From Clostridiales bacterium (GTDB taxonomy: Bacteria > Bacillota > Clostridia > TANB77 > CAG-508): 64,000 nucleotides of DNA. Location of the stretch: positions 64,032-128,031 of the forward strand of contig DQFO01000014.1 in NCBI GenBank assembly GCA_003525075.1, in the 5' to 3' direction. Position numbers and translations under genes: made by a program. Positions 1,908 to 45,802 of the stretch are shown piece after piece. Position 1 is the first letter of the stretch, and each line of letters begins with the position of its first letter. A model generated the notes under the pieces. The model was not told the DNA's origin. It ran no database searches and saw only the letters and a program-made list of their open reading frames with translations.

Positions 1908-4025
1908 TTATTGTTTTTTTATCCCCATTTTTATTAAAATATTTTTCAACACTCTTTTACATCTTCTTAAAAATCTATATGTTTTTCCATGATTGTCTAC
2001 ATATATTGGTTGTGCTTTTTGTAACTCTTCTGAGCATTTCATTGCTTCTTCTGTAGCTAAAAAAGCTGATTTTTTATAAAGTGGTTTTATCTCTGGTATA
2101 TCTTTATAATCTGTTTCTAACATGTCTTTTACTGCTTTTAAATATTCTTCAAATCCTTTTTCAAGTGGATAATTTTTCATATATTGTACACCAAATTTTG
2201 ACATCTTCTCAGCCACTTGTGGATTATCTAATATATATGCAATAGCACTAGCAATAGCCTCTGGTATTGGTTGTGCAAGCAATACTCCTTCATCTGGCAA
2301 GTCATATATGTTATTTTCTTTATATAATTCTACTACTGGTAACCCTGCTGACATCATTTCAAATGGTATTCTTGATGGATTTGATGCACTCATACATATT
2401 CCAACTTTACATTTATTATATAATTCATTACATTCTTTTATTGGTATTATATTTAAGTTTTTACATTCAAATTCAAATGTTGCTGGCATACTTGAACCAT
2501 ATAAATATATTTGTACATCTGGTTTCATTGCTTTTAATATTTTTAAAGCTTTTAATCCTATATAATCACATCTTCTTGGCTTTTCTGGTTGATATACAAA
2601 ACATATTGCATTTTCCTTTTTTACTTTTGGTAATGGTTTATATACATTTAAATCTGCACCAAAACTAAAATATTCTGCTGGCGTATTAAATTCTGCCTGC
2701 ATTTTATGCGCTAACCATTTTCCTATTGTTACTGGTAAAAATCCATATCTATATGAATTTTCTGTAATTAAATATTGATCTCCCATTGGGAAGAACCATG
2801 GTTCAAAATCTTGTATAAAATATGCTTTTTTCTTTGCTGGTAGTTTTCTTACAAATTCTACTGTTTGCCAACCTGTTGCAAACATCAAATCATATTCTTG
2901 TTTTAAATCAAATCCAACATATACTCCTGCATCACATTTTTCATACCAATCATTTATTTTTTGTCTTACTATTTCAGATGTTGAAACACCATCTTCTTCA
3001 AAATATAAATCACAATCATATCCTGCTCTTATTAAAGCATTTACATTTTGAATTATTGTTCTATGCCCACCAGATCCTTTTCCAGGATGTGGTATTACCC
3101 ATGCAATTTTCTTTTTTCCATTATCTTTTTTTGGTAATAATGGATACATAAAACTTCTTCTTAATTCTTGTTTGTCTTTGATTTCTTTTGTTAATTCATA
3201 TGTTTTAGATATCTCGTCTTGAATTCTACAAATCTCATTAAATTCGATTTCTGCTTTTACATCTGTACATACTGATGAACCATGTTTTCTATAATAGTTA
3301 AGTGGCTTATTACACCAACTAATCTTTCCATTTTTTAATATATTAAAATAAATATACCAGTCTCCTGCAACCTTAAATTCTCCTGCTTTTTCTAAAATTT
3401 CTGTGTAATCTTGTTTTTTCCACATTACACTAGAAACATTTAATATTGTGTTTGTTACACTTAAATGTTCTTTTATTTCTTTTTCTCCTGGCCATATATA
3501 TGATTTATTCCATTCTCCTGTTCTGCACATATCATATAAATCATCTGATTTTTCTCTTATTAAATTATTTTCTCCATCAATTCTAGCAGATTCACAATAT
3601 GATAATACAACTTCTGGATCATCAAATGGTTTTATTAAATTTTCAACAAAATCATTTTCAGCAGAATCATCTGCTTCTGCAATCCATATATAATCTCCTG
3701 TCGAAGCATTAAATCCCTTTTTCCATTGTTTAAATACACAACCACCACTATTTTTTTCATTAATGATAAATTGAACTTTTATTTCTGGATGTTCTTTTTT
3801 TATCTCATCTATTTTTTTATTTATTACTTTAACACTATTGTCTGGTGAACAATCATCTAATATAACAATTTCATATATTGGATATGTTTGCATTAATACA
3901 GAGTCTATTCTCTCTATTATATATTTTTCGTAATTATAATTTGGAATTATTACACTTACTTTTTTTGGATTTTCTATTTTTAATTTTTTCTTTTGATGTT
4001 TATAAATATCTATTTTTTTCTCCAT
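1908..4025 (-). CDS. Bifunctional glycosyltransferase: N-terminal GT2 domain plus C-terminal WsaF-like/GT-B domain
   Basis: The ORF track gives 1908..4037. ATG 4025 (MEKKIDIY) with GGAGG at 4031-4035 is the better start. GT2 motifs are VSVIIPNYNYEKYI, ILDDCSPDNS and IAEADD. The C-terminal KKIAWVIPHPGKGSGGHRTI resembles WsaF-type rhamnosyltransferases. Confidence 0.7.
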   Translation of the reverse strand: MEKKIDIYKHQKKKLKIENPKKVSVIIPNYNYEKYIIERIDSVLMQTYPIYEIVILDDCSPDNSVKVINKKIDEIKKEHPEIKVQFIINEKNSGGCVFKQWKKGFNASTGDYIWIAEADDSAENDFVENLIKPFDDPEVVLSYCESARIDGENNLIREKSDDLYDMCRTGEWNKSYIWPGEKEIKEHLSVTNTILNVSSVMWKKQDYTEILEKAGEFKVAGDWYIYFNILKNGKISWCNKPLNYYRKHGSSVCTDVKAEIEFNEICRIQDEISKTYELTKEIKDKQELRRSFMYPLLPKKDNGKKKIAWVIPHPGKGSGGHRTIIQNVNALIRAGYDCDLYFEEDGVSTSEIVRQKINDWYEKCDAGVYVGFDLKQEYDLMFATGWQTVEFVRKLPAKKKAYFIQDFEPWFFPMGDQYLITENSYRYGFLPVTIGKWLAHKMQAEFNTPAEYFSFGADLNVYKPLPKVKKENAICFVYQPEKPRRCDYIGLKALKILKAMKPDVQIYLYGSSMPATFEFECKNLNIIPIKECNELYNKCKVGICMSASNPSRIPFEMMSAGLPVVELYKENNIYDLPDEGVLLAQPIPEAIASAIAYILDNPQVAEKMSKFGVQYMKNYPLEKGFEEYLKAVKDMLETDYKDIPEIKPLYKKSAFLATEEAMKCSEELQKAQPIYVDNHGKTYRFLRRCKRVLKNILIKMGIKKQ

Positions 4026-5542
4026 AAAAACCTCCATTTTGGTATTTTTACATATTGCTCTCTTAATCTTTTATTTTCTTCTGTTAAATTAAAAATTTGT
4101 TCTTTCAAATTATCTGCTTCTGCTTTTTGTGCATTACTTCTAATATTCAAGTTTTCTATTTCTTGTTCTTGTGCCTTATTTCTTATATTTTGATTTATTA
4201 ATTCTTGTTTTGTCGCATCTATATCTATAATATTATTTTGCTTATATGATTTCCATGTTTCATCATCTCTTACCATTTCTTGCATTTTATCATCTAGTTT
4301 TTTAAATAGTTCTAAATATTTTGTTAAATTGTATTTTTCTAATAAATCTTCAATTTTTATAAATCTTCTTAATGATATTGTATATAAAATAGATCTATAT
4401 AAAATGTATTCAACTGGTAAATTAGGCTCGTCCCATTCTTGATCAAAGAAATAGAAATCATTATCTATATAAAAACAATTTTTAAATGTCATATCCCATA
4501 ATCCTTTAGGAGTAAAATGCAAATCATTTATTATAGTTTTATCTTGTATTTCTAGATTATATTTTCCAAATGCTGTTTTTTCATAATTTTCTTCATGATA
4601 TATATCAATACTAATTTTTTCTATAAATTTATCTAATATTTCATAAAATTCATCATTTCTCTGTTCTTCAAGTAGCTCTGTTAATCTATTATTTAATAAA
4701 TTTTTCTGTTCTATATATTTACTTCTTATTATTTGATTTTCTATATAATCAACAGTTTTTATACCATTTTCATTTAAATATCTTATATTACTTTTTATAT
4801 TTTCATAATGTTTATGTGCTTTTTCATTTACTTCTTGTTTTTCCACATATTCATCTGCAATTTTTGTAATTAATCTATATTTTTCTTTTCTTATATTATT
4901 AAAAGATATATATTTATATGTTTTATCACATTCACCTTTTGTTATTTCAATTAAAAATGAATTTGCAAAAAATGTAAACATATTTTTATCTGTTTTTAAT
5001 ATTTCTCTAAATACATCAATTTCATTAAATGTAATATCATTATTTTCTATATAATATGGATGATATTTATCTATACTATTATATTCTGGCAATTGTTCAT
5101 CTGTAAAAATTACATTAGGCTTTTTATAATCTGGTAATGGATAATAAAATCTCATATTATATCCTAATTTTCTTATTTCATTTTCTATACTTGATTTTGT
5201 ATATGTTTCTCTTTTATTTTGTTCATTATTATATCCTGTTAAACTAGCAAATTTCTTTTTATATATTTTATCTGGCGTTCCATTAAATGCTTCTAGCCCA
5301 AATTTATTATCAATTGTTATTAGTATTTTTCCTTTTTCTTCTAAAATTTTTTCTACCTTTTTTATAAGTTCTTTTAATTTGATATTTTGATTTTCAAAGA
5401 TTCCTACAAGTATAATTACATCAAATTTTTCATTACATAAATCAATTTCTTCTATATTTTTTATTTCTTTTATTTTTTGGTTTTCTTTAAAAGGATACCA
5501 ATTTAATATATTAGGACTTTGAACTTCACCCACTATTTCCAC
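4010..5542 (-). CDS. Methyltransferase-like protein with C-terminal coiled coil (possible glycan chain terminator/ruler)
   Basis: 510-aa ORF. FDVIILVGIFEN...KGKILITIDNKFG resembles motifs II-III of class I SAM methyltransferases, but motif I (GxGxG) is not evident. The last ~70 aa are heptad-like (NQNIRNKAQEQEIENLNIRSNAQKAEADNLKEQIFNLTEENKRLREQY). Its 3' end overlaps the downstream GT start. Confidence 0.45.
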   Translation of the reverse strand: MEIVGEVQSPNILNWYPFKENQKIKEIKNIEEIDLCNEKFDVIILVGIFENQNIKLKELIKKVEKILEEKGKILITIDNKFGLEAFNGTPDKIYKKKFASLTGYNNEQNKRETYTKSSIENEIRKLGYNMRFYYPLPDYKKPNVIFTDEQLPEYNSIDKYHPYYIENNDITFNEIDVFREILKTDKNMFTFFANSFLIEITKGECDKTYKYISFNNIRKEKYRLITKIADEYVEKQEVNEKAHKHYENIKSNIRYLNENGIKTVDYIENQIIRSKYIEQKNLLNNRLTELLEEQRNDEFYEILDKFIEKISIDIYHEENYEKTAFGKYNLEIQDKTIINDLHFTPKGLWDMTFKNCFYIDNDFYFFDQEWDEPNLPVEYILYRSILYTISLRRFIKIEDLLEKYNLTKYLELFKKLDDKMQEMVRDDETWKSYKQNNIIDIDATKQELINQNIRNKAQEQEIENLNIRSNAQKAEADNLKEQIFNLTEENKRLREQYVKIPKWRFLWRKK

Positions 5543-11213: not shown

Positions 11214-11242
11214 TTGACATTTTTTTCTAATTATACTATAAT
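11214..11242 (+). promoter_or_regulatory. Sigma-70/SigA-type promoter, perfect consensus
   Basis: TTGACA (11214-11219), 17-nt spacer, TATAAT (11237-11242), 56 nt upstream of ATG 11299. Confidence 0.6.
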
Positions 11243-11298
11243 AATAATATAGGCTGATTTGCCTATTATAATTTTGTGGCCTACAAGGAGGGCTAATT

Positions 11299-11607
11299 AT
11301 GAGCATTTTTGAGAATGACGGAAACTACTACGCCAACTATTCTGTCCCTGCAATTTCTTTTTGCAACAGAAAAGCATCATCTGCCGAGTTCCGCAAATAC
11401 CTGGCCGAACATCCTTCTGTACAGGAAGATGTTCCGTCCTCTATTATGGAAGAACTCCAGAAGATGCCCAGCGCCAAACCCGCTGGTGCTGCCTACTATG
11501 CAACCCTGAACACTCAGCTGTTCACCAAGTTCTGCAAAGATGTGGCAACGGCGATGGTAGAGAAGTCTCGCGATCCTCAGTGTGTTATGGTCTTCTCTGG
11601 AAACTAA
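11299..11607 (+). CDS. Hypothetical 102-aa soluble protein on a GC-rich foreign island
   Basis: AAGGAGGG (11285-11292) lies 6 nt before the ATG. G+C is 24/60 for nt 11299-11358 and 29/60 for 11401-11460, against ~23% in the flanks. A hairpin terminator follows. No family recognised by eye, and no TM segment or signal peptide. Confidence 0.6.
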   Translation: MSIFENDGNYYANYSVPAISFCNRKASSAEFRKYLAEHPSVQEDVPSSIMEELQKMPSAKPAGAAYYATLNTQLFTKFCKDVATAMVEKSRDPQCVMVFSGN

Positions 11608-11637
11608 AATAGATTTTATATTTTAGTTTTTCACAAA

Positions 11638-11673
11638 AGCCCGCAGATGAAAAAAATCATCTGCGGGCTTTTT
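11638..11673. terminator. GC-rich bidirectional intrinsic terminator (serves the 102-aa ORF and convergent recO)
   Basis: 13-bp perfect stem agcccgcagatga (11638-11650) / tcatctgcgggct (11657-11669) with an A6 loop. A-run upstream and T-run downstream. Confidence 0.8.
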
Positions 11674-11676
11674 ATA

Positions 11677-26189: not shown

Positions 26190-26699
26190 TTATTTATTAA
26201 GATTATTCTTAATATTTTCAATGCTTTCATTTAATTTGGATGTACAATATGGACACCTATCTGCTTTTATATTAATTTTATTATAACAATGTGGACAAAT
26301 CTTTGTATCTTCTGCTTTTTTCTCTTCTTGTTTTTCTCCTATTTTTGCAATTTTATTCATAACTTTTACAAGTATAAATATTACAAATGCCATTATCAAA
26401 AAGTTTATTATATCTGTTAAAAATGCTCCATATGTTAGTTTTAATTTTCCAATTTCTAATACCCATTCTGAAAAATTTACTCCTCCAAAACATCCTAAAA
26501 TTGGAGAAATAATATTATTTGTAAATGATGTTACAACACTTTGAAATGCACTTCCTATCAATACACCTACTGCTAAGTCTAAAACATTTCCTCTAAGTGC
26601 GAATTCTTTAAATTCCTTAAAAAACTTTCCTTGTTTTTTCTTTGCTTTTTCTATCGCATCTTTTGCTTCTTTTATTTTTTCTTCATTTTCTTTTTTCAT
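26190..26699 (-). CDS. mscL: Large-conductance mechanosensitive channel MscL with N-terminal K/E extension and C-terminal zinc-ribbon
   Basis: FKEFALRGNVLDLAVGVLIGSAFQSVVTSFTNNIISPILG is the MscL TM1 signature. The C-terminus carries CPHCYNKINIKADRCPYC. Confidence 0.85.
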   Translation of the reverse strand: MKKENEEKIKEAKDAIEKAKKKQGKFFKEFKEFALRGNVLDLAVGVLIGSAFQSVVTSFTNNIISPILGCFGGVNFSEWVLEIGKLKLTYGAFLTDIINFLIMAFVIFILVKVMNKIAKIGEKQEEKKAEDTKICPHCYNKINIKADRCPYCTSKLNESIENIKNNLNK

Positions 26700-26740
26700 T
26701 ATAATATACCTTCTTCCGCTGTTATTATATTACATTTTTA

Positions 26741-26769
26741 TTTACATATCAATATAAAAGTGATATTAT
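26741..26769 (+). promoter_or_regulatory. SigA-type promoter for the PHP gene
   Basis: TTTACA (26741-26746), 17-nt spacer with TGa extended -10, then TATTAT (26764-26769). GAAGGAG RBS before ATG 26791. Confidence 0.5.
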
Positions 26770-26790
26770 ATTTTTGAAGGAGATTTTTAT

Positions 26791-27675
26791 ATGATAGATT
26801 TACATATGCATACAACTTATTCAGATGGCACTGAAAGTTGTAGTACAGTTTTAAAAAAATGCCAAGAAAAAAACTTAAATTTTATTTCAATAACAGATCA
26901 TAATACTGCTTTAGTATATGAAGAGTTAGAAGATCAAAGTATTTCTTCACTTTTTAATGGTCATATTATTTCAGGAATAGAGCTTAATACAAAAGCTTTA
27001 AATATTCCTATAGAAATTCTTGGATATGGTATTGATTACAAAAAAATGAATGAACTTGTAAAAAATGTGTATATTCCCGCTGAAGAAAGAAATAAAATCG
27101 AAGTAAAAAGATTATATGATAAATGTATTAATGCTGGAATTGTCCTAGATAAGAACTGTCTGGAAAACTACTCACCAGATATGTTTGCCTCAACATTTTT
27201 CCATAAAGAAATAACAAAACATGCGGAAAATAAAAAAATATTATCTGAAGAAGCTTGGAATTCTAGTAAAATCTTTTATAGACAATATATGTCTGATCCA
27301 AAAACAAAATTATATGTTGAAATGGATGATTTTGTACCAGACTTTGAAACTGCTAGTAATTTAGTTAGAGAAGCTGGTGGTTTAGTATTTATTCCTCATA
27401 TTTATGAATACAAGAAAAATTCAGAACCTATACTAGAACATATTCTTAAAAATTATAAAATTGATGGTATTGAATGTTATTATACAACATTTACTGAAGA
27501 ACAACATAAAAGATTATTAAATCTTTGTAAAGAACGTAATTTATTTGTTTCAGGTGGTAGTGACTTCCATGGTACTATAAAACCAGATGTAGATATTGGT
27601 GTTGGATATGGAAATATGCAAATTCCTGATGAAATTTTAAATTCTTGGAAAAATAAAATTAAATTTTTCAAATAA
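26791..27675 (+). CDS. PHP-domain metal-dependent phosphoesterase (TrpH/YciV-like)
   Basis: MIDLHMHTTYSDGT and ISITDHNT motifs and a late GGSDFHG. Host-like AT-rich composition. Confidence 0.85.
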   Translation: MIDLHMHTTYSDGTESCSTVLKKCQEKNLNFISITDHNTALVYEELEDQSISSLFNGHIISGIELNTKALNIPIEILGYGIDYKKMNELVKNVYIPAEERNKIEVKRLYDKCINAGIVLDKNCLENYSPDMFASTFFHKEITKHAENKKILSEEAWNSSKIFYRQYMSDPKTKLYVEMDDFVPDFETASNLVREAGGLVFIPHIYEYKKNSEPILEHILKNYKIDGIECYYTTFTEEQHKRLLNLCKERNLFVSGGSDFHGTIKPDVDIGVGYGNMQIPDEILNSWKNKIKFFK

Positions 27676-27678
27676 AAT

Positions 27679-27707
27679 TTGACACATTTCGATTTTTGGT
27701 ATATAAT
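27679..27707 (+). promoter_or_regulatory. Sigma-70/SigA-type promoter, perfect consensus, starting 3 nt after the PHP stop codon
   Basis: TTGACA (27679-27684), 17-nt spacer, TATAAT (27702-27707). A 76-nt leader runs to ATG 27784. Confidence 0.65.
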
Positions 27708-27783
27708 TAATATATTAACCCATTGTATGGATTTGCTATTCAAAAATCGGATAGTAAAAAACAATTTATGGAGGTATGGCACT

Positions 27784-28416
27784 ATGACTACTCGTTGGAT
27801 TGCTGTTACTGGCTTGGACGGAAGTGGCAAAACCACTTTGGTCGACAATCTCGTTAAATTTCTCGAATCTAAGGGATTCAAGGTTTACCGGGATCGTTTC
27901 CCCCACGATAAGTATTTGACCAAGACTCTCTTGAATGAGAGCAAGGATGCTTATACTGATCGTCTGCTCTTTGCACTGGATAATCGCATCGCGGGTACTC
28001 ACCTGCGTGGCATCATTGAGACTGGTGAATATGATTTCATAGTTACTCAGCGTTGTTTCCTGGACAGTTTTGTCCATGGTGCAGTTCAGGGCTATTCCTA
28101 TTCTTGGGTGTCTGAACTCAATCATGTCAGAGATCTTCCCAAGTGTGACATTATGGTCCACATGGTCGCAGAAGCCCGCATCGCGTATGCGCGCATTTGC
28201 AATGATCCTGATGCTGATAAGTTCGAATATCCTGAATACATCGGCAAACAAGAGCAAGAAACCCGGCGGGCATATGTTGAAGTTGAAGCGCATAACAATC
28301 CTGCACTCATCCACTTTAACACTTGCCAAAACATCTACATGGACACCACTCAGATGTCCACTGATGAGGTCTTCGAAACGGTAAGCTCTAAGCTCGTTAA
28401 GATGCTCAACCTCTAA
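27784..28416 (+). CDS. Thymidylate-kinase-like P-loop nucleotide kinase (divergent), on a GC-rich foreign island
   Basis: GGAGG (27770-27774) lies 9 nt before ATG 27784. The ORF-track start at 27679 is the TTG of the -35 box. Walker A IAVTGLDGSGKTT is Tmk-type, and LLFALDNR resembles Tmk LLFxADR. The DRY/DRH position reads TQRCF. 29/60 G+C in the first 60 nt. Confidence 0.75.
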   Translation: MTTRWIAVTGLDGSGKTTLVDNLVKFLESKGFKVYRDRFPHDKYLTKTLLNESKDAYTDRLLFALDNRIAGTHLRGIIETGEYDFIVTQRCFLDSFVHGAVQGYSYSWVSELNHVRDLPKCDIMVHMVAEARIAYARICNDPDADKFEYPEYIGKQEQETRRAYVEVEAHNNPALIHFNTCQNIYMDTTQMSTDEVFETVSSKLVKMLNL

Positions 28417-28421
28417 AAAAT

Positions 28422-28460
28422 AAAGCCCAAGTAGCGTATACGTTACTTGGGCTTTATTTT
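28422..28460. terminator. GC-rich bidirectional intrinsic terminator between convergent genes
   Basis: Stem aaagcccaagtagcg / cgttacttgggcttt (15 bp including one G-U) with a tata loop. A-run before and T-run after. Confidence 0.8.
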
Positions 28461-28469
28461 ATTAAAATC

Positions 28470-29396
28470 TTATTCATGTCTTCTATCAACTGCATAACTA
28501 CTTCCAATAATAGATTTTGCAACATGTTTTACTTGTGCTCCTATTTCACCTATTTCCAATATATTGGCAAATCTATCCTTATCTGCAATTACAGCTCCTA
28601 TAGAAATTGATGTTAAAGAAAATTGTTCTATAATTCCTTTTCTATTTGCAACCTCTATATATCCTTTTTCTAGATCCTCTTCAGTAAAGAATTTTGTTAC
28701 CCCTTCATCAAAGTTAGCAATTATTAATTGGCATATATTATCAACATCTAATGTTGGAACGATTGCTATAAAATCATCTCCACCTATATGCCCTATAAAA
28801 TAATTTTCCTTAAAACTTTGATGAATACATTTTAAAATTGTATCTGCTGTATATTCAATTATTTGATCTCCTTTTAAAAATCCATATACATCATTATATG
28901 CTTTAAAATTATCCAAATCTAAATATAAAACTGAAAATTCCTCTTTATTTGTAATTCTTTTCTTCAATTCTGCATGAATTTGTACATTTCCTGGTAAACC
29001 TGTTAATGGACTTATTCTTCTATTCATTTTCAATAATCTATCTAAGTTTTTTATTGTATAATACAAATATTCTGTATCAACTGGTTTTTTTATATAATAT
29101 TCAACTGATTGTTCTAAAACTTCTAATTTATGATATTTATCAGTATTTGATGACACAACAATTATTGGTGTTATTTGATTATCTTCATCTGTTCTTATCT
29201 GTTTACATAGGCCTGTAATATCTCTATCTATTGAATCTTCATTTATAATTATCAAAAAAGGTATATTTTTTAATGTTATATCTATTTGTTCAGTTTTTAC
29301 TCCAATAAATTTGAACTCTTTATCATTTCTAAATAATTCTTTAAAAATCGGAATAGATGATTCATCATCATCTATTACATATATATCTTGTGCCAT
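28470..29396 (-). CDS. Response-regulator-like protein: pseudo-receiver domain plus degenerate GGDEF (GGDDF) domain
   Basis: The REC landmarks are VIDDDE, IIVVSS and YIKKP, but the phospho-acceptor position aligns to N in FLIIINEDS. The GGDEF-type region has PLTGLPGN, YLDLDNFKAYND and HIGGDDFIAIV. Confidence 0.75.
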   Translation of the reverse strand: MAQDIYVIDDDESSIPIFKELFRNDKEFKFIGVKTEQIDITLKNIPFLIIINEDSIDRDITGLCKQIRTDEDNQITPIIVVSSNTDKYHKLEVLEQSVEYYIKKPVDTEYLYYTIKNLDRLLKMNRRISPLTGLPGNVQIHAELKKRITNKEEFSVLYLDLDNFKAYNDVYGFLKGDQIIEYTADTILKCIHQSFKENYFIGHIGGDDFIAIVPTLDVDNICQLIIANFDEGVTKFFTEEDLEKGYIEVANRKGIIEQFSLTSISIGAVIADKDRFANILEIGEIGAQVKHVAKSIIGSSYAVDRRHE

Positions 29397-29421
29397 ATTT
29401 TCCCTCGTTTCTTATTTTATT

Positions 29422-30393
29422 CTATGGTAAACTACATTGTGCCTTCTTTGAAGTTGTCAAATTCTCATTTGATGCCTCTATTATTAATTTATTATCAAAT
29501 CCTTTTTGTAGTACAATTTCTGTTGTATATTCACTTGAATTTACATCTATATTTACTTTTTCTTCATCATTTAAAGTTATTTTTACATTTTTTAGTATAA
29601 CTTCGTCTTTTATTGATATTGAATAATAAACATTTCCATCAAGCTTCTTTATCGCTTGAACTTTTATTTCTGGTACTTTTGCTCCAATTACTACTTGTGT
29701 TTTTTCTGTTTTTATTCCTTTATCATCTATTACTTCTATTTTTAGCGTATGTTTTCCAACTGGTGCTATAATTCTTTCTGAATATTGTGTTGAATTAACT
29801 TCTATTACTTTCTCTTGTTCATCATCCCATTTATATGATACTTTCTTTATTTTTTCAACTGATGTAACTGTTAATTTTACAGCATTATCCACATTATTTA
29901 AATCTATTTGTGCTAAATTACCTACAGTATATTCTTGTTCATATTCTACAAGATGATTCATTTCATCTGTTGCTTTTACAACTATCTTGTTTTTTCCTCC
30001 ATCCAATTTTACTGTAGTTTTTATATCTTGTTGATTATTTCCTTCAATAACTTTTTCATCTTGATTGTTTAGTGTATATATAACTTGTGTTATTCCTTTT
30101 GGATGGTGAACTGAAATGTCAACAGAACTTTCATCTTCATTAAAACTAAAATTAACTACTGGTGTTGCATTTTCTTCAATATTTTTATTTATTTTGTCTT
30201 TTGCATATATACTTCCAGCAATAATACATATCCCTAAAATTAATATACTTATTGCAAAAAAGATTACTATTTTATTTATTTCAATAACTGATTTTTCTTT
30301 ATATACTTTTTGTTTTTTATTTTGATTATAATTTCCATAGTTTATATTATTATTTTTGAATTGTTCTTCACCTGTATCTAATATTTGATTCAT
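29422..30393 (-). CDS. Single-pass membrane protein with repeated beta-rich (Ig-like) extracellular modules
   Basis: 323 aa with a cytoplasmic N-rich N-terminus and the TM helix IVIFFAISILILGICIIAGSIYA. About three ~80-aa beta-strand-pattern modules follow. It lies 25 nt upstream of the REC-GGDEF gene. Confidence 0.5.
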   Translation of the reverse strand: MNQILDTGEEQFKNNNINYGNYNQNKKQKVYKEKSVIEINKIVIFFAISILILGICIIAGSIYAKDKINKNIEENATPVVNFSFNEDESSVDISVHHPKGITQVIYTLNNQDEKVIEGNNQQDIKTTVKLDGGKNKIVVKATDEMNHLVEYEQEYTVGNLAQIDLNNVDNAVKLTVTSVEKIKKVSYKWDDEQEKVIEVNSTQYSERIIAPVGKHTLKIEVIDDKGIKTEKTQVVIGAKVPEIKVQAIKKLDGNVYYSISIKDEVILKNVKITLNDEEKVNIDVNSSEYTTEIVLQKGFDNKLIIEASNENLTTSKKAQCSLP

Positions 30394-43331: not shown

Positions 43332-44426
43332 ATGGAAAATACTAAAATTGGAAATAAAGAAGCAATTGCCCTTTTAACAACAATCTCATTTAATCAAATA
43401 ATTATATTTGGAGTAAAATCTATAATAAACAATACTTCATCTGCTTCTTTACTTAATCTACTATATTTAAGTATTATTATATTAATTTTCACAATTTTAA
43501 TATGTTATTTATTAAATAAATTTCCATCATTTGATTTACTTGATATATCTGATTATCTTGGTGGAAAAATATTAAAATGGATTATTGGAATTTTATTTTT
43601 TATATATTTTATTATTTTTGCAGGGAATTCACTTCATCTGTTTTCTTCATGTTTAGAAATAATATATTTTCCTTTAACTCTACTGATTTTTATAAGATCA
43701 TTTTTAATAATAGGTGCTACTATTACTTGCTTATTCAAAAATAATGCGTTATATAGAAGCAATTTTATTGTTTTTCCTTTAATTATAATTACTACTATTT
43801 TTATGTTTTTCTCTGATATGAAATATTTTAACATTGAAAATGTATACCCTATATTTGGAGATAGTCTCTTTTACACTTTTATTGTTGGATTAAATAATAT
43901 GATTGTATTTCAAAGTTTAGCATATATTTTTTTCTTGCCACCATTATTAAAAAATACTCAAAACATAAAAAAAATTGCAATAACATCTATTGTAATATCT
44001 TGTATTTTAAACTTATTATGTGTTGCAACAGTTCTTTTTACATTTGATGGTTTTACAGAAATAGATGAATTACTACCTTTATATTCAGCAGTAAAGCATA
44101 TAGAATATGGTGAATTTTTTAGAAAAATGGATTCTATATTTTTTCTAATTTGGATTATTAGTTTTGTAAGTTACTTAAGTTTAACACTAAAATTTTCAGC
44201 AAATATTTTAAAAAAATTAACATATTCAAAATCCAACTTTTTCTTTATATTTATTTCTGCATTTCTATTATTTATAACATCTGGATGGCAGAAAAATTAT
44301 AATACATCTTTGATGTTTACTGAAAATTTTTTAAGTTATTTCTTTTTTATATTAGTATTCGTAATTGCTATTTTAGTTTTACTATTAGCATTTATAAAAA
44401 AGAAAATTAAAAGGTGGTCAAAATGA
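43332..44426 (+). CDS. Spore germination protein, GerAB/GerKB-type permease subunit
   Basis: 364 aa with ~10 TM segments. The N-terminus NKEAIALLTTISFNQII and overall organisation are typical of the germinant-receptor B subunit. It is coupled to a GerC-like gene. Confidence 0.7.
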   Translation: MENTKIGNKEAIALLTTISFNQIIIFGVKSIINNTSSASLLNLLYLSIIILIFTILICYLLNKFPSFDLLDISDYLGGKILKWIIGILFFIYFIIFAGNSLHLFSSCLEIIYFPLTLLIFIRSFLIIGATITCLFKNNALYRSNFIVFPLIIITTIFMFFSDMKYFNIENVYPIFGDSLFYTFIVGLNNMIVFQSLAYIFFLPPLLKNTQNIKKIAITSIVISCILNLLCVATVLFTFDGFTEIDELLPLYSAVKHIEYGEFFRKMDSIFFLIWIISFVSYLSLTLKFSANILKKLTYSKSNFFFIFISAFLLFITSGWQKNYNTSLMFTENFLSYFFFILVFVIAILVLLLAFIKKKIKRWSK

Positions 44427-45802
44427 AGAAAAAATTTATAATTATTTTAATATTATTTGTTGTCTTTATTACATTTATTGCAGGATTTTCCAATTCATAC
44501 ATCTCTCGTCGTATAGAACATCTTGCATATGTTCTTGTGCTTGGAATTGATAAAGGTGAAAAAGCAAGATTAAAAATTTCTATTCAATTTATAAATGTTT
44601 CTTCTTCATCAAGTGGTGCATCTTCTGATTCTTCGCAAATTGTATTAACATCTTGCGAAGCTAATTCTATGTTTAGTGGATTAAACCTTTTAAATAGTTA
44701 TATAGGTAAAGAAATTAATCTTGCACATTGTAGTGTTGTCGTTTTTTCAGAAGAAATTGCCAAAGAAGGAATTTCATCAGAGATATATAGTTTAATAAAT
44801 AATGAAGAAATTCGTTCTTCTGCTAATATTGTTGTTGCAAATTGTAAAGCATATGATTATATTAATAATAGTAAACCTAATTTAGAAAATCTAACAAGTA
44901 AATATTTCGATACATTTGATATTACAAGTAAACTAACTGGATATTTTTCAAATATAACACTTGGTGATTTTTTTAATAATCTATCTGAAAGCAATTCAGA
45001 CCCAATAGCAGTTTTAGGCGGATTAAATTCAACAGCACGTTCTGAAGAAGATAAATCATCTTCAAATTCTTCTGAAGAAAGTTCTTCATCTTCAAATTCT
45101 TCTGAAGAAAGTTCTTCATCTTCAAATAGTGGCAATTCAGACAATATAAATGGTGAAACCTCAAATTCTAATTCATCATCACAAGATATTGAAGATCAAG
45201 AGAAACAAGAAATTGAAACTACTCAAAATAATTTAGTTGCTGGAAAAAGTTCAATTGTTGGTGGAAGAGGTACAGAAAACCTTGGTCTTGCTATTTTTTC
45301 TGGTGATAAATATATTGGAGAATTAACTGTTTGGGAATCAATTTGTCATTCTCTTATCACAAATTCTATTGATACCTGTATAATATCTGTTGAAGATCCT
45401 TTAGTTGAAAATAAACAATTAGAAATTCAACTTTCTCCTAATAAAAAATCAAAAATAACATCTAATATCGAAAATGGAGCTATAAATATAAATATTGAAC
45501 TAAATTTAATTGCTAATATAATTTCATTAAATTCAAATATAAACTATGAAGATACAGATACTATAAATAAGATATCCACAGCTACTCAAAATCGTTTAAA
45601 TGACGAATTAAATAAATATTTTGATAAAACAGCAAGAAAGTATAATGTTGATATTGATAAATATTATTTAAGTATTCTAAAATATTTTCCTTATCAAAAA
45701 AACTTTGATAATTTTAATTATAAAGAAAAATTAAAAAATGCCAACTTTAATTGTAATACACATGTGAACATCATTTCTTCATTACTTATAACCAAAACAT
45801 AA
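44423..45802 (+). CDS. Ger(x)C-family germination protein, with no lipobox cysteine and a Ser-rich insert
   Basis: The likely start is ATG 44423 (ATGA overlap with the gerB stop; AAGGTGG RBS). RIEHLAYVLVLGIDKGE matches the GerC N-domain. The signal region ends FIAGFSNS, with F where the lipobox Cys is expected. Confidence 0.7.
   Translation: MKKKFIIILILFVVFITFIAGFSNSYISRRIEHLAYVLVLGIDKGEKARLKISIQFINVSSSSSGASSDSSQIVLTSCEANSMFSGLNLLNSYIGKEINLAHCSVVVFSEEIAKEGISSEIYSLINNEEIRSSANIVVANCKAYDYINNSKPNLENLTSKYFDTFDITSKLTGYFSNITLGDFFNNLSESNSDPIAVLGGLNSTARSEEDKSSSNSSEESSSSSNSSEESSSSSNSGNSDNINGETSNSNSSSQDIEDQEKQEIETTQNNLVAGKSSIVGGRGTENLGLAIFSGDKYIGELTVWESICHSLITNSIDTCIISVEDPLVENKQLEIQLSPNKKSKITSNIENGAININIELNLIANIISLNSNINYEDTDTINKISTATQNRLNDELNKYFDKTARKYNVDIDKYYLSILKYFPYQKNFDNFNYKEKLKNANFNCNTHVNIISSLLITKT
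45056..45127 (+). repeat. Coding tandem repeat, 30-bp unit x about 2.4 (SSNSSEESSS)
   Basis: ttcaaattcttctgaagaaagttcttcatc occurs at 45061-45090 and is repeated exactly at 45091-45120, with partial copies on both sides. Confidence 0.9.

Follow-up and report, generated by a model that had tools for sequence, protein, structure and literature searches.

A kinase gene with GC-rich codons lies in a 64,000-nucleotide stretch of DNA from a Clostridiales bacterium (contig DQFO01000014.1 of assembly GCA_003525075.1), hereafter the window. It occupies a block at positions 27676–28465, between a gene encoding a PHP-domain phosphoesterase (hereafter PHP) and a convergent gene encoding a REC-GGDEF protein. 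An initial annotation of the window regarded the block as recently acquired or artificially inserted. The analysis reported here leads to a different conclusion. The kinase gene is natural, old, linked to PHP and under purifying selection. It forms an autonomous transcription unit, homologous recombination spreads its alleles among related species, and its base composition is maintained rather than residual. The preferred reading, to which we assign a probability of about 0.6, is that of a natural, long-resident, PHP-linked kinase of the nucleoside monophosphate (NMP) type with a thymidylate kinase (Tmk) fold, the GC-rich codons of which are maintained by a gene-specific force and the alleles of which are exchanged.

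The kinase gene and its locus

The GTDB collection was scanned with one genome per species. The kinase (at least 44% identity) is present in 34 species representatives, all uncultured low-GC Clostridia (the record names include Clostridium sp. 26_21 and CAG:343), and PHP adjoins it in 33 of these loci, the remaining one being a 1-kb contig. The two genes are mostly arranged in tandem; they are convergent in loci L027, L033, L034 and L037 and divergent in L035 and L036. In L033, two kinase paralogues (2281–2883 and 4161–4754, 48% and 59% identical to the window's kinase) flank PHP, each behind its own perfect promoter and with a GC content at third codon positions (GC3) of 0.48 and 0.41, respectively. 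The distance matrices of the kinase and PHP are congruent (Mantel Spearman 0.69, P = 0.0005) and the average-linkage clades are identical. The remaining neighbours vary by species and are core chromosomal genes (SecA, GuaA, IMPDH, Cmk, MinDE, LDH and phosphotransferase system genes). The REC-GGDEF gene adjoins the kinase only in the closest relatives (L004/L005) and lies outside the conserved module. Comparison of the window with L004 indicates purifying selection on the kinase, with proportions of nonsynonymous (pN) and synonymous (pS) differences of 0.046 and 0.446 (pN/pS ~ 0.1).

The junctions of the block occur in many independent metagenome assemblies at 99–100% identity. Approximately 27 human-gut contigs, including contigs of 1.49 and 1.62 Mb, carry the kinase at 98–100% protein identity in the same context. 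A public open reading frame (ORF) call of 245 aa includes the translated leader, and three contigs with it are 99.5% identical over both junctions. The exact PHP protein was found in 1,967 collection blocks, with the kinase downstream in 10 of the 10 places shown, and the kinase likewise lies downstream in two further species reached through 76%- and 73%-identical PHP proteins. The initial annotation had suggested looking in relatives for an empty site at which PHP and REC-GGDEF abut; none was found in these PHP-anchored look-ups over three species (10 same-species places and the two further species). Neither direct repeats or a target-site duplication flanking the block nor an integrase or transposase gene near the kinase were found, as the initial annotation had noted. 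Its description of the gene as stand-alone holds for transcription; however, the adjacency to PHP is conserved in tandem, convergent and divergent forms.

Family members are absent from IMG/VR, INPHARED and PLSDB, and tblastn searches of INPHARED and PLSDB returned canonical tmk only, at 22–31% identity. An origin from a phage or plasmid was rejected on these grounds. The best match of the kinase in PADLOC-DB 2.0 was PDC-M51B (22 bits, 2.5e-5), a generic P-loop match, and neither PHP nor GGDEF had a hit. No donor of higher GC was found in GTDB representatives, JGI/ENA metagenomes, IMG/VR, INPHARED or PLSDB. Among 63 GTDB and 80 metagenome loci of members that are at least 44% identical, flanks that are not chimeric have a GC content of at most 0.33, apart from several contigs of flank GC 0.36–0.41; two low-coverage contigs, L082 and L090, have a flank GC of 0.44. 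L082 was considered as a donor and set aside, because RelA/SpoT-type DNA is joined inside its GGDEF gene and it looks chimeric. The locus is joined to DNA of ~ 45–50% GC both in L082 (from ~ 1950) and in L090 (upstream of 4437, with PHP truncated); at a coverage of 1.5–2.7x, these look like chimeric assemblies rather than donors. In L073 (1–1830, low coverage), the window allele, 100% identical from the −10 box on, has SpoVG, TatD and MTHFS-like genes on its left where PHP would be expected, and the GGDEF gene on the right is only 78–86% identical, which reflects a different context or a chimeric assembly. In the human-gut contig L140 (546–983), the kinase has an internal deletion of ~ 192 bp (window ~ 27987–28179) between two copies of the 9-bp direct repeat CGCATCGCG; the enzyme core is lost and the flanks are 100% identical to the window. 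The deletion could reflect a genuine null allele or an error of assembly.

The species from which the window comes has a genome of ~ 1.5–1.6 Mb and is very common in the human gut. More distant members of the kinase family (35–41% identity) were found in Actinomycetota, including Mycobacterium, and in Planctomycetota, Alphaproteobacteria and one archaeon; those checked have a host-like GC content of ~ 0.6. The next gene in eight actinobacterial kinase loci encodes an NT5C-type 5'(3')-deoxyribonucleotidase. Two members from Bacilli metagenome-assembled genomes (42–44% identity) have a host-like low GC content and no PHP neighbour.

The layout described in the initial annotation (promoter, 76-nt leader, GGAGG, ORF and terminator) is present where it was placed, with an ORF of 210 codons plus the stop, and its G+C counts of 29/60 for the start of the ORF and 14/60 for the neighbouring gene are exact. 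TTGACA is located at 27679, 3 nt past the PHP stop (27675), TATAAT ends at 27707, and GGAGG precedes the ATG at 27784 by 9 nt. The promoter is the sole 12/12 match within 26500–29500 and one of two in the 64-kb window, where 0.07 would be expected. The inverted repeat of the terminator consists of 22-nt arms (28417–28438 and 28439–28460) that are 95% complementary, with folding energies of −29.1 kcal/mol on the plus strand (z = −9.1) and −24.3 kcal/mol on the minus strand (z = −8.2). A simple terminator scan passed over this hairpin because the T-run belongs to the stem. The hairpin folds on both strands and therefore serves as the terminator of both convergent genes.

This cassette design of consensus promoter, leader hairpin, strong Shine-Dalgarno (SD) sequence and strong terminator is conserved across species. 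A near-perfect promoter (TTGACA, a 17- or 18-nt spacer and TATAAT) stands ahead of the kinase in nearly every related species, and in many of the ~ 12-kb related loci it is the only perfect one of its spacing. A strong SD and a terminator hairpin (−17 to −36 kcal/mol) are present in all species examined. A leader stem-loop of 7–11 bp, ~ 15–25 nt upstream of the SD, occurs in 16 of 21 tandem-type species, compared with a mean of ~ 5.8 bp in shuffled sequences; the stem-loops differ in sequence, and the leaders cannot be aligned between clades. Rfam searches (E-value thresholds for 27000–29000, gathering score for the whole window) matched no leader family and hit the terminator hairpin only; a riboswitch or other known RNA in the leader was rejected on this basis.

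Exchange of kinase alleles is apparent from the divergence of neighbouring genes. Between the window and L004, pS is 0.047 for PHP and 0.446 for the kinase; between L004 and L005, the corresponding values are 0.317 and 0.022. Sliding identity places one tract boundary at the kinase ATG and the other inside the 3' half of GGDEF. The human-gut contigs L072, L073, L080 and L085 carry the window's kinase allele in diverged flanks, and the protein P0003 is a mosaic of two lineages. Within species, the nucleotide diversity of the kinase is 0.0127 versus 0.001–0.005 for the flanks, ~ 3 times that of PHP or MscL. Because the boundaries vary between events and repeats are lacking, the process is ordinary homologous exchange and not site-specific cassette movement.

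Composition of the gene and sequence of its product

The GC content of the kinase ORF is 0.458 versus 0.262 for the rest of the window, and its GC3 of 0.50 compares with 0.07–0.18 in the 43 other window ORFs of at least 200 aa (0.18 in EF-Tu). Across 24 long window ORFs that served as a reference, the codons CTC, CTG, CGC and CGG have frequencies of ~ 0.00, and in the kinase they account for 13 of 18 Leu and 6 of 12 Arg codons; CTG and CGC are among those that the initial annotation had rightly listed as rare elsewhere and common here. TTA, ACA, CCA and TCA are used 0 times in the kinase and AGA once. The codon usage of the kinase is near uniform and the base composition of the ORF near equimolar.

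The GC content of the kinase exceeds that of its flanks by 6–21 points in 34 of 34 species loci, and its GC3 is 0.22–0.58 (0.18–0.63 including metagenome loci) versus 0.09–0.23 for PHP. The excess begins at the start codon: the pooled leaders have a GC content of 0.24, codons 2–31 a GC3 of 0.40 and the entire ORF a mean GC3 of 0.42. The shift is strand-asymmetric. The frequency of A at third positions (A3) decreases from 0.43 to 0.22 and T3 from 0.43 to 0.36, and C3 and G3 are tripled; in the window's kinase, C3 is 0.30 and G3 is 0.20.

When clades are compared, 0.41 of the sites with identical amino acids share their codon, versus 0.38 under independence, and the phi coefficient of the GC3 state is 0.09. 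PHP is also saturated over the same divergences. For an equilibrium GC3 of ~ 0.1, the half-life of a GC3 excess in a host gene was calculated as ~ 0.12 synonymous substitutions per site. Given the synonymous saturation and this short half-life, the relic of a single transfer should already have decayed. The excess persists despite the saturated synonymous sites and is therefore maintained, which points to a gene-specific force on the codons rather than incomplete amelioration.

The codon usage is not that of a highly expressed gene. EF-Tu and EF-G of the window have an A3 of 0.53–0.57 and use ACA at 0.95, CCA at 0.93, TTA at 0.85 and AGA at 0.88. Since they prefer the A-ending codons that the kinase avoids, its usage may be termed anti-optimal, and an explanation by high expression was rejected. 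A search for avoidance of trinucleotides (ACA-type RNase motifs) in the kinase yielded nothing specific. Polarisation of AT-to-GC versus GC-to-AT changes by parsimony was set aside, as the PHP control displayed a known artefact (e.g. 30 vs 1).

The initial annotation described the product as a divergent Tmk-like kinase, and the protein analyses agree. Pfam PF02223 (Thymidylate_kin) aligns residues 10–166 with model positions 3–161 of 185 at 35.6 bits (cut-off 27, E = 9.6e-9). The dTMP-kinase equivalog TIGR00041 of NCBIfam scores 49.1 bits, below its cut-off of 83.25, and NF005923 scores 38.4 bits versus a cut-off of 193. The best sequence matches in the Protein Data Bank (PDB) are Tmks (E ~ 5e-6). 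An AlphaFold2 model predicted from 29 family sequences has a pLDDT (predicted local distance difference test) score of 92.3, and its best 50 Foldseek matches in the PDB are all Tmks (E ~ 1e-9, TM-score 0.66–0.77, 16–24% identity). A Joint Genome Institute (JGI) record labels one family member 'dTMP kinase'.

The Walker A motif and the LLFxADR-like segment pointed out in the initial annotation are both present. The P-loop reads VTGLDGSGKTT, compared with the Tmk pattern xEGxDGxGK[ST]T that includes the Asp contacting the 3'-OH; G10–T17 are invariant in 29 family members, Asp12 is kept and the Tmk Glu is replaced by Thr or Ser. The segment TDRLLFALDNR, in which the stacking F63 and the base-contacting R68 are invariant, aligns to LLFEASR of Aquifex Tmk. 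The DR(Y/H/F) motif is altered, as also remarked there: the family reads T-Q-R-[GC]-F-L-D-S-F-V-H-G where Tmk has DR[YFH] ... S-x-A-Y-Q. Only the Arg (R90) of DR[YFH] is kept, and Q89, H98 and G99 are invariant across the family; the family thus has Gln and Gly/Cys where DRY has Asp and Tyr, and His and Gly where AYQ has Tyr and Gln. A lid, which the initial annotation had missed, is represented by a lid-like segment that aligns to Tmk models through the invariant R137 and D145-K-F-E148 within DPDADKFEY. In searches with a hidden Markov model (HMM) of the family, members score 128–413 bits and canonical Tmks 20–37 bits. Among 1.84 billion representatives, no more than 22 attain E ≤ 1e-30. Judged by its sequences, the family is narrow, distinct and Tmk-like, and these do not reveal the substrate. 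The altered specificity proposed in the initial annotation is plausible in view of the TIGR00041 score (49 vs 83 bits), of QR[GC] and of VH-G for AYQ.

The PHP protein passes the Pfam PHP cut-off (36.9 vs 26.4 bits, E = 5.9e-9), and its sequence matches in the PDB include 3e0f (1.8e-15), 7ug9 (RNase AM, a 5'-3' exoribonuclease; 2.3e-10) and 2yb1 (8e-6). A 73%-identical relative bears the JGI label 'phosphoesterase TrpH'. By these similarities, the partner of the kinase is classified as a TrpH/YciV/RNase AM-type phosphoesterase.

Proposed function and rival explanations

In the preferred reading, the PHP enzyme would release 5'-(deoxy)nucleoside monophosphates ((d)NMPs) from short oligonucleotides or 3',5'-bisphosphates, and the kinase would convert the (d)NMP to the diphosphate in a step of salvage or nucleotide-pool control. 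PHP relatives such as 2yb1 reportedly also strip the 3'-phosphate of adenosine 3',5'-bisphosphate (pAp). Enzymes of the RNase AM type produce mononucleotides from di- and oligoribonucleotides that are short and 5'-phosphorylated (PMC11528712). The pairing of kinase and deoxyribonucleotidase in Actinobacteria, by analogy, points to handling of the (d)NMP pool. The GC-rich codon usage would most likely be held by selection at the level of translation or mRNA, possibly aided by recombination-associated biased conversion; codon- or mRNA-level selection fits best because the effect is confined to the ORF and specific for A. The consensus promoter, the SD and the stabilising hairpins possibly compensate for poor translation of an ORF of rare codons, which would explain the joint occurrence of strong signals and rare codons.

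Unusual GC content and codon usage are routinely taken as evidence that a gene was transferred horizontally in the recent past. The initial annotation saw a recent or artificial kinase cassette between two native convergent genes, with a candidate role in phage defence or counter-defence or in inactivation of a nucleoside-type toxin or antibiotic. The block's own perfect promoter and terminator, its GC3 of 0.50 versus ~ 0.1 for the host, a match to phrog_761 'thymidylate kinase' (1.7e-10), the weak PADLOC hit of 22 bits, the movement of kinase alleles among related species and a young second cassette of like design (11214–11675) limited to this species complex are what one would expect of such an insert. 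This explanation is nevertheless highly improbable. The PHP-linked locus in 33 of 34 species representatives, the lack of an empty site in the PHP-anchored look-ups, the synonymous saturation between clades, the congruent kinase and PHP trees, the junctions in many natural assemblies and the lack of flanking repeats contradict a recent or artificial insertion. The core chromosomal context devoid of mobility genes, the PADLOC score and the absence of family members from the viral and plasmid collections speak against defence or counter-defence. The occurrence of the same gene with host-like composition at the same site in relatives had been named as evidence against insertion; the site is indeed the same, but the composition is not host-like. 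A more serious competitor, though still unlikely, is that the kinase is a housekeeping dTMP kinase, a xenolog that replaced the canonical tmk in an ancestor and produces dTDP, its adjacency to PHP being mere synteny. Such a role agrees with its presence in every sampled species of the clade and fixation within species, with purifying selection, with the Tmk fold and the passed PF02223 cut-off, with the retained thymine-stacking Phe, Arg68, Arg90 and lid Arg, with the JGI label, with a nearby dUTPase gene, by which the genome makes dTMP, and with the lack of another Tmk both in the 64 kb of the window and in related loci totalling ~ 1 Mb (flanks of at most 10 kb). It is at odds with the TIGR00041 score, with the invariant residues that replace the DRY Asp/Tyr and the AYQ Tyr/Gln, with an adjacency to PHP that outlasts inversions, as plain synteny does not predict, with the two paralogues flanking PHP in L033 and with the deletion variant L140. 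The family is furthermore present in Mycobacterium spp., where it is paired with the deoxyribonucleotidase, and these species possess a canonical Tmk. The recurrence of a kinase–phosphoesterase pair in two distant clades with different phosphatase folds, together with the pAp 3'-phosphate removers among PHP relatives, would also suit a split polynucleotide end-healing pair like T4 Pnkp, in which the kinase acts on 5'-OH ends and PHP (or NT5C/HAD) removes 3'-phosphates. This is very improbable in that mononucleotide Tmks make up all of the best 50 structural neighbours, the NMP-site residues Phe63 and Arg68 known from Tmk are invariant, and no ligase or RNA-repair partner is nearby.

The composition has its own set of competing causes; biased conversion, transcription-linked mutation and repeated import all account for some of the data, and each of them fails on at least one observation. 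The ORF could be a recombination hot spot, in which exchange between lineages combined with GC-biased gene conversion raises GC wherever heteroduplex forms. This accounts for the exchange of alleles between species with breakpoints at the ATG, the mosaic protein P0003, the threefold diversity relative to PHP or MscL and the restriction of GC enrichment to the alignable ORF, the fast-diverging leader having none. It is doubtful because biased conversion should treat A and T alike, whereas A3 falls to 0.22 and T3 only to 0.36, because the adjoining and equally conserved PHP is not enriched, and because the young orphan ORF at 11299–11607 shows this composition too, although it has no deep clade as a partner for recombination. 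The effect of ~ 30–40 GC3 points is also larger than expected, since reported bacterial effects of GC-biased conversion are far smaller. Extreme transcription from the consensus promoter, against the prevailing gene direction, could instead displace the local mutational equilibrium through transcription-coupled repair and damage to the non-template strand; the sense strand would lose A, and mutation would become more frequent. The window's two perfect promoters coincide with its two GC-rich ORFs, several ORFs behind perfect promoters in relatives are likewise GC-rich, T3 exceeds A3 on the sense strand, the raised divergence and diversity are confined to ORFs, and both cassettes are on the plus strand when nearly all other genes are on the minus strand. 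Such a mutational asymmetry is quite improbable, as the transcribed leaders are host-like (GC 0.24), there is no excess of G over C, GC3 is host-like behind perfect promoters in a 195-aa protein gene (L020–L026) and an HD-domain gene (L070), the kinase GC3 ranges over 0.18–0.63 behind equally good promoters, and the orientation relative to neighbours is not conserved. Finally, the GC-rich codons could protect a conserved antisense gene, a 187-aa ORF at 27766–28329 on the minus strand, the codon-aligned frame of which stays open along the whole gene in the window, L006, L012 and L022, and almost entirely open in seven more species. This is barely credible and was rejected: the frame is broken (44–62 codons) in all low-GC3 members, an open frame follows automatically from avoiding TTA, CTA and TCA, and avoidance of these three is no stronger than that of the other codons ending in A.

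Several points weigh against the preferred reading of a PHP-linked NMP-type kinase with maintained GC-rich codons. The GC3 spread of 0.18–0.63 among lineages is unlike a single strong constraint. The pooled 3' untranslated spacers have a GC content of 0.38 (246 nt), a hint that the effect is regional and not purely one of codons. The raised diversity and pS of the ORF are equally expected from neutral decay of a GC-rich sequence, and gut bacteria with small genomes would hardly be expected to sustain selection that holds ~ 100 synonymous sites off mutational equilibrium. The coupling of kinase and PHP and the substrate of the kinase are deduced from gene adjacency alone, and each of the two genes has a transcription unit of its own. 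The kinase could be no more than the housekeeping Tmk of this clade. The 192-bp deletion in the low-coverage contig L140 argues weakly against essentiality.

Similar units, neighbouring genes and known systems

Table 1 Features of the kinase block, its neighbours and the second cassette in the window.
Feature	Positions	Strand	Description
PHP-domain phosphoesterase gene	26791–27675	+	TrpH/YciV/RNase AM-type (by similarity), COG0613-like; conserved kinase partner; GC3 0.12, host-like
Kinase promoter	27679–27707	+	TTGACA-17-TATAAT, sigma-70-type, 12/12 match
5' untranslated region	27708–27783	+	76 nt, AT-rich; stem-loop 27732–27758; Shine-Dalgarno GGAGG 27770–27774
Kinase ORF	27784–28416	+	210 codons + stop; Tmk-fold P-loop kinase; GC 0.458, GC3 0.50
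Bidirectional intrinsic terminator	28417–28460	both	A-run before, T-run after; serves the kinase and the convergent REC-GGDEF gene
Convergent REC-GGDEF gene	28470–29396	−	Pfam GGDEF 7.7e-16
Promoter of second cassette	11214–11242	+	perfect TTGACA-17-TATAAT, the only other one in the window
Leader hairpin of second cassette		+	ATAGGC-tgattt-GCCTAT
Ribosome-binding site of second cassette		+	AAGGAGGG
Orphan ORF of second cassette	11299–11607	+	102 codons; GC3 0.53; near-equimolar bases
Terminator of second cassette	~ 11637–11675	+	GC-rich

The two GC3 outliers of the window are its two ORFs with perfect promoters (Table 1). The second cassette sits between the minus-strand GT2 and RecO genes and is natural, being found at the same site in related genomes. 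Its ORF is 89.6–94.2% identical among them versus 95–100% for the promoter, terminator and flanks, with pN/pS of 0.2–0.43. The protein belongs to no Pfam family and has 5 clusters among 5.8 billion sequences; its model (pLDDT 65) is too uncertain for a structure search. The compositional anomaly is real and clade-wide. It is seen again in at least one cassette that is unrelated but built alike, and this recurrence is the most interesting result of the analysis. The kinase cassette appears to be a member of a class of like-built units.

Among the related loci, GC-rich small ORFs stand behind perfect promoters in L027 (8358–8744, 128 aa), L127 (7098–7505, 135 aa) and L006 (339–566, 75 aa); their GC3 is 0.39–0.57, none belongs to a Pfam family and the 75-aa one is Cys-rich. 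Perfect promoters also precede genes of host-like GC3, namely that of the 195-aa protein of L020–L026, which is a membrane protein, and the HD-domain gene of L070. A 337–338-aa HIT-domain gene is located divergently upstream of the PHP–kinase pair in L009 (3866–4879, minus strand) and L103 (promoter at 3953, minus strand). It has a perfect promoter, its own terminator and a GC3 of 0.35–0.37 versus a locus GC of 0.29–0.30, and constitutes a third nucleotide-handling gene at the locus with the same cassette build.

Downstream of GGDEF, the window contains a 323-aa ORF (29422–30393, minus strand) with an N-terminal hydrophobic segment and no Pfam domain, which is 61–67% identical in L004/L005 versus 98–99% for the adjoining LDH. 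Its product is hypervariable and probably surface-exposed, and it shares the variable stretch 27787–~ 30500 with the kinase. The genes of the window are nearly all on the minus strand, and the cumulative GC skew drops steadily across it. Plus-strand genes are limited to PHP, the kinase, the 102-aa ORF and a pair at 43332–45802; both GC-rich cassettes therefore run against the prevailing gene direction.

It may be speculated, as a rather unlikely extension of these observations, that the kinase cassette is the oldest of a class of 'insulated' units of very AT-rich gut Clostridia, all built on the cassette design described above, in which selection holds the ORF near equimolar and away from the A-ending codons preferred by the host. 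If so, expression of these units would be uncoupled from host limits on A/U nucleotides or major tRNAs, a nucleotide-sparing or codon-gated design for a nucleotide-salvage kinase, and they would represent natural long-term selection on the synonymous composition of a single gene against AT mutation pressure. Whatever the cause, a kinase gene with a 40-point GC3 excess that is old, is vertically co-inherited with PHP and retains this excess in dozens of species despite saturated synonymous sites is a counter-example to the amelioration model, and identification of the cause would provide a handle on synonymous composition, be it codon or mRNA selection, biased conversion or transcription-linked mutation. 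Population data with which these causes could be told apart already exist, because the species is extremely common in human-gut metagenomes, as the 1,967 blocks with its PHP protein attest. The Tmk-like family has changed substrate-site residues and, in two phyla, a genetic link with nucleotide phosphoesterases; this suggests that gut bacteria with reduced genomes carry out a previously undescribed step in the salvage of nucleotides or the control of their pools. A literature search returned nothing relevant on the kinase–PHP pair or on conserved GC-rich genes in AT-rich genomes.

Several known systems resemble the block in part. Like the morons of phages, it has its own strong promoter and intrinsic terminator for independent transcription and a composition unlike both neighbours, and the window holds a younger unit of the same design. 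Unlike them, it resides in the core chromosome and not in a prophage, no relative was found with the flanking genes abutting, and the kinase is conserved clade-wide and co-inherited with its neighbour. An integron cassette is a promoterless ORF with an attC site and a nearby integrase, whereas the kinase has a consensus promoter of its own, its 3' hairpin is an A-run/T-run terminator of a sequence that differs per species, and no integrase is nearby. Functional non-optimal codons are found in Neurospora frq, in cyanobacterial kaiBC and in the TTA/bldA-dependent genes of Streptomyces. The kinase is similarly held far from the genomic codon optimum and avoids the A-ending codons of EF-Tu and EF-G. 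It differs in that its GC3 varies widely by species and in that it has a consensus promoter and a strong SD instead of weak signals, the likeness being one of codon counts.

The closest comparison of the protein is with Tmk. The predicted fold is shared, with TM-scores of 0.70–0.77 to the Aquifex, S. aureus, Thermus, M. tuberculosis and human enzymes, as are the P-loop GLDGSGKT, LLFxxxxR with its stacking Phe and base-contacting Arg, the central Arg of DRY, the lid-like R...D-K-F-E and the length of ~ 210 aa. In contrast, the kinase is only 19–24% identical to these enzymes and below the equivalog cut-off. It has Thr/Ser for the Glu preceding the P-loop, QR[GC] for DR[YFH], DSFVHG in place of S-x-A-Y-Q, which makes sugar and base contacts, and the invariant lid motif DPDADKFEY. 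It belongs to a tight HMM cluster of its own, and its gene is tied to a phosphoesterase gene and not to holB or other replication genes. The substrate cycles formed by deoxynucleoside kinases with NT5C/NT5M likewise pair a kinase with a phosphoesterase, as seen here with PHP and, in Actinobacteria, with NT5C; however, the kinase has an NMP-kinase (Tmk-like) fold and not that of a nucleoside kinase, it is not co-transcribed with PHP, and the pair is known here from sequence. In the degradation of nanoRNA by RNase AM/TrpH, PHP relatives release 5'-NMPs, which are natural kinase substrates.

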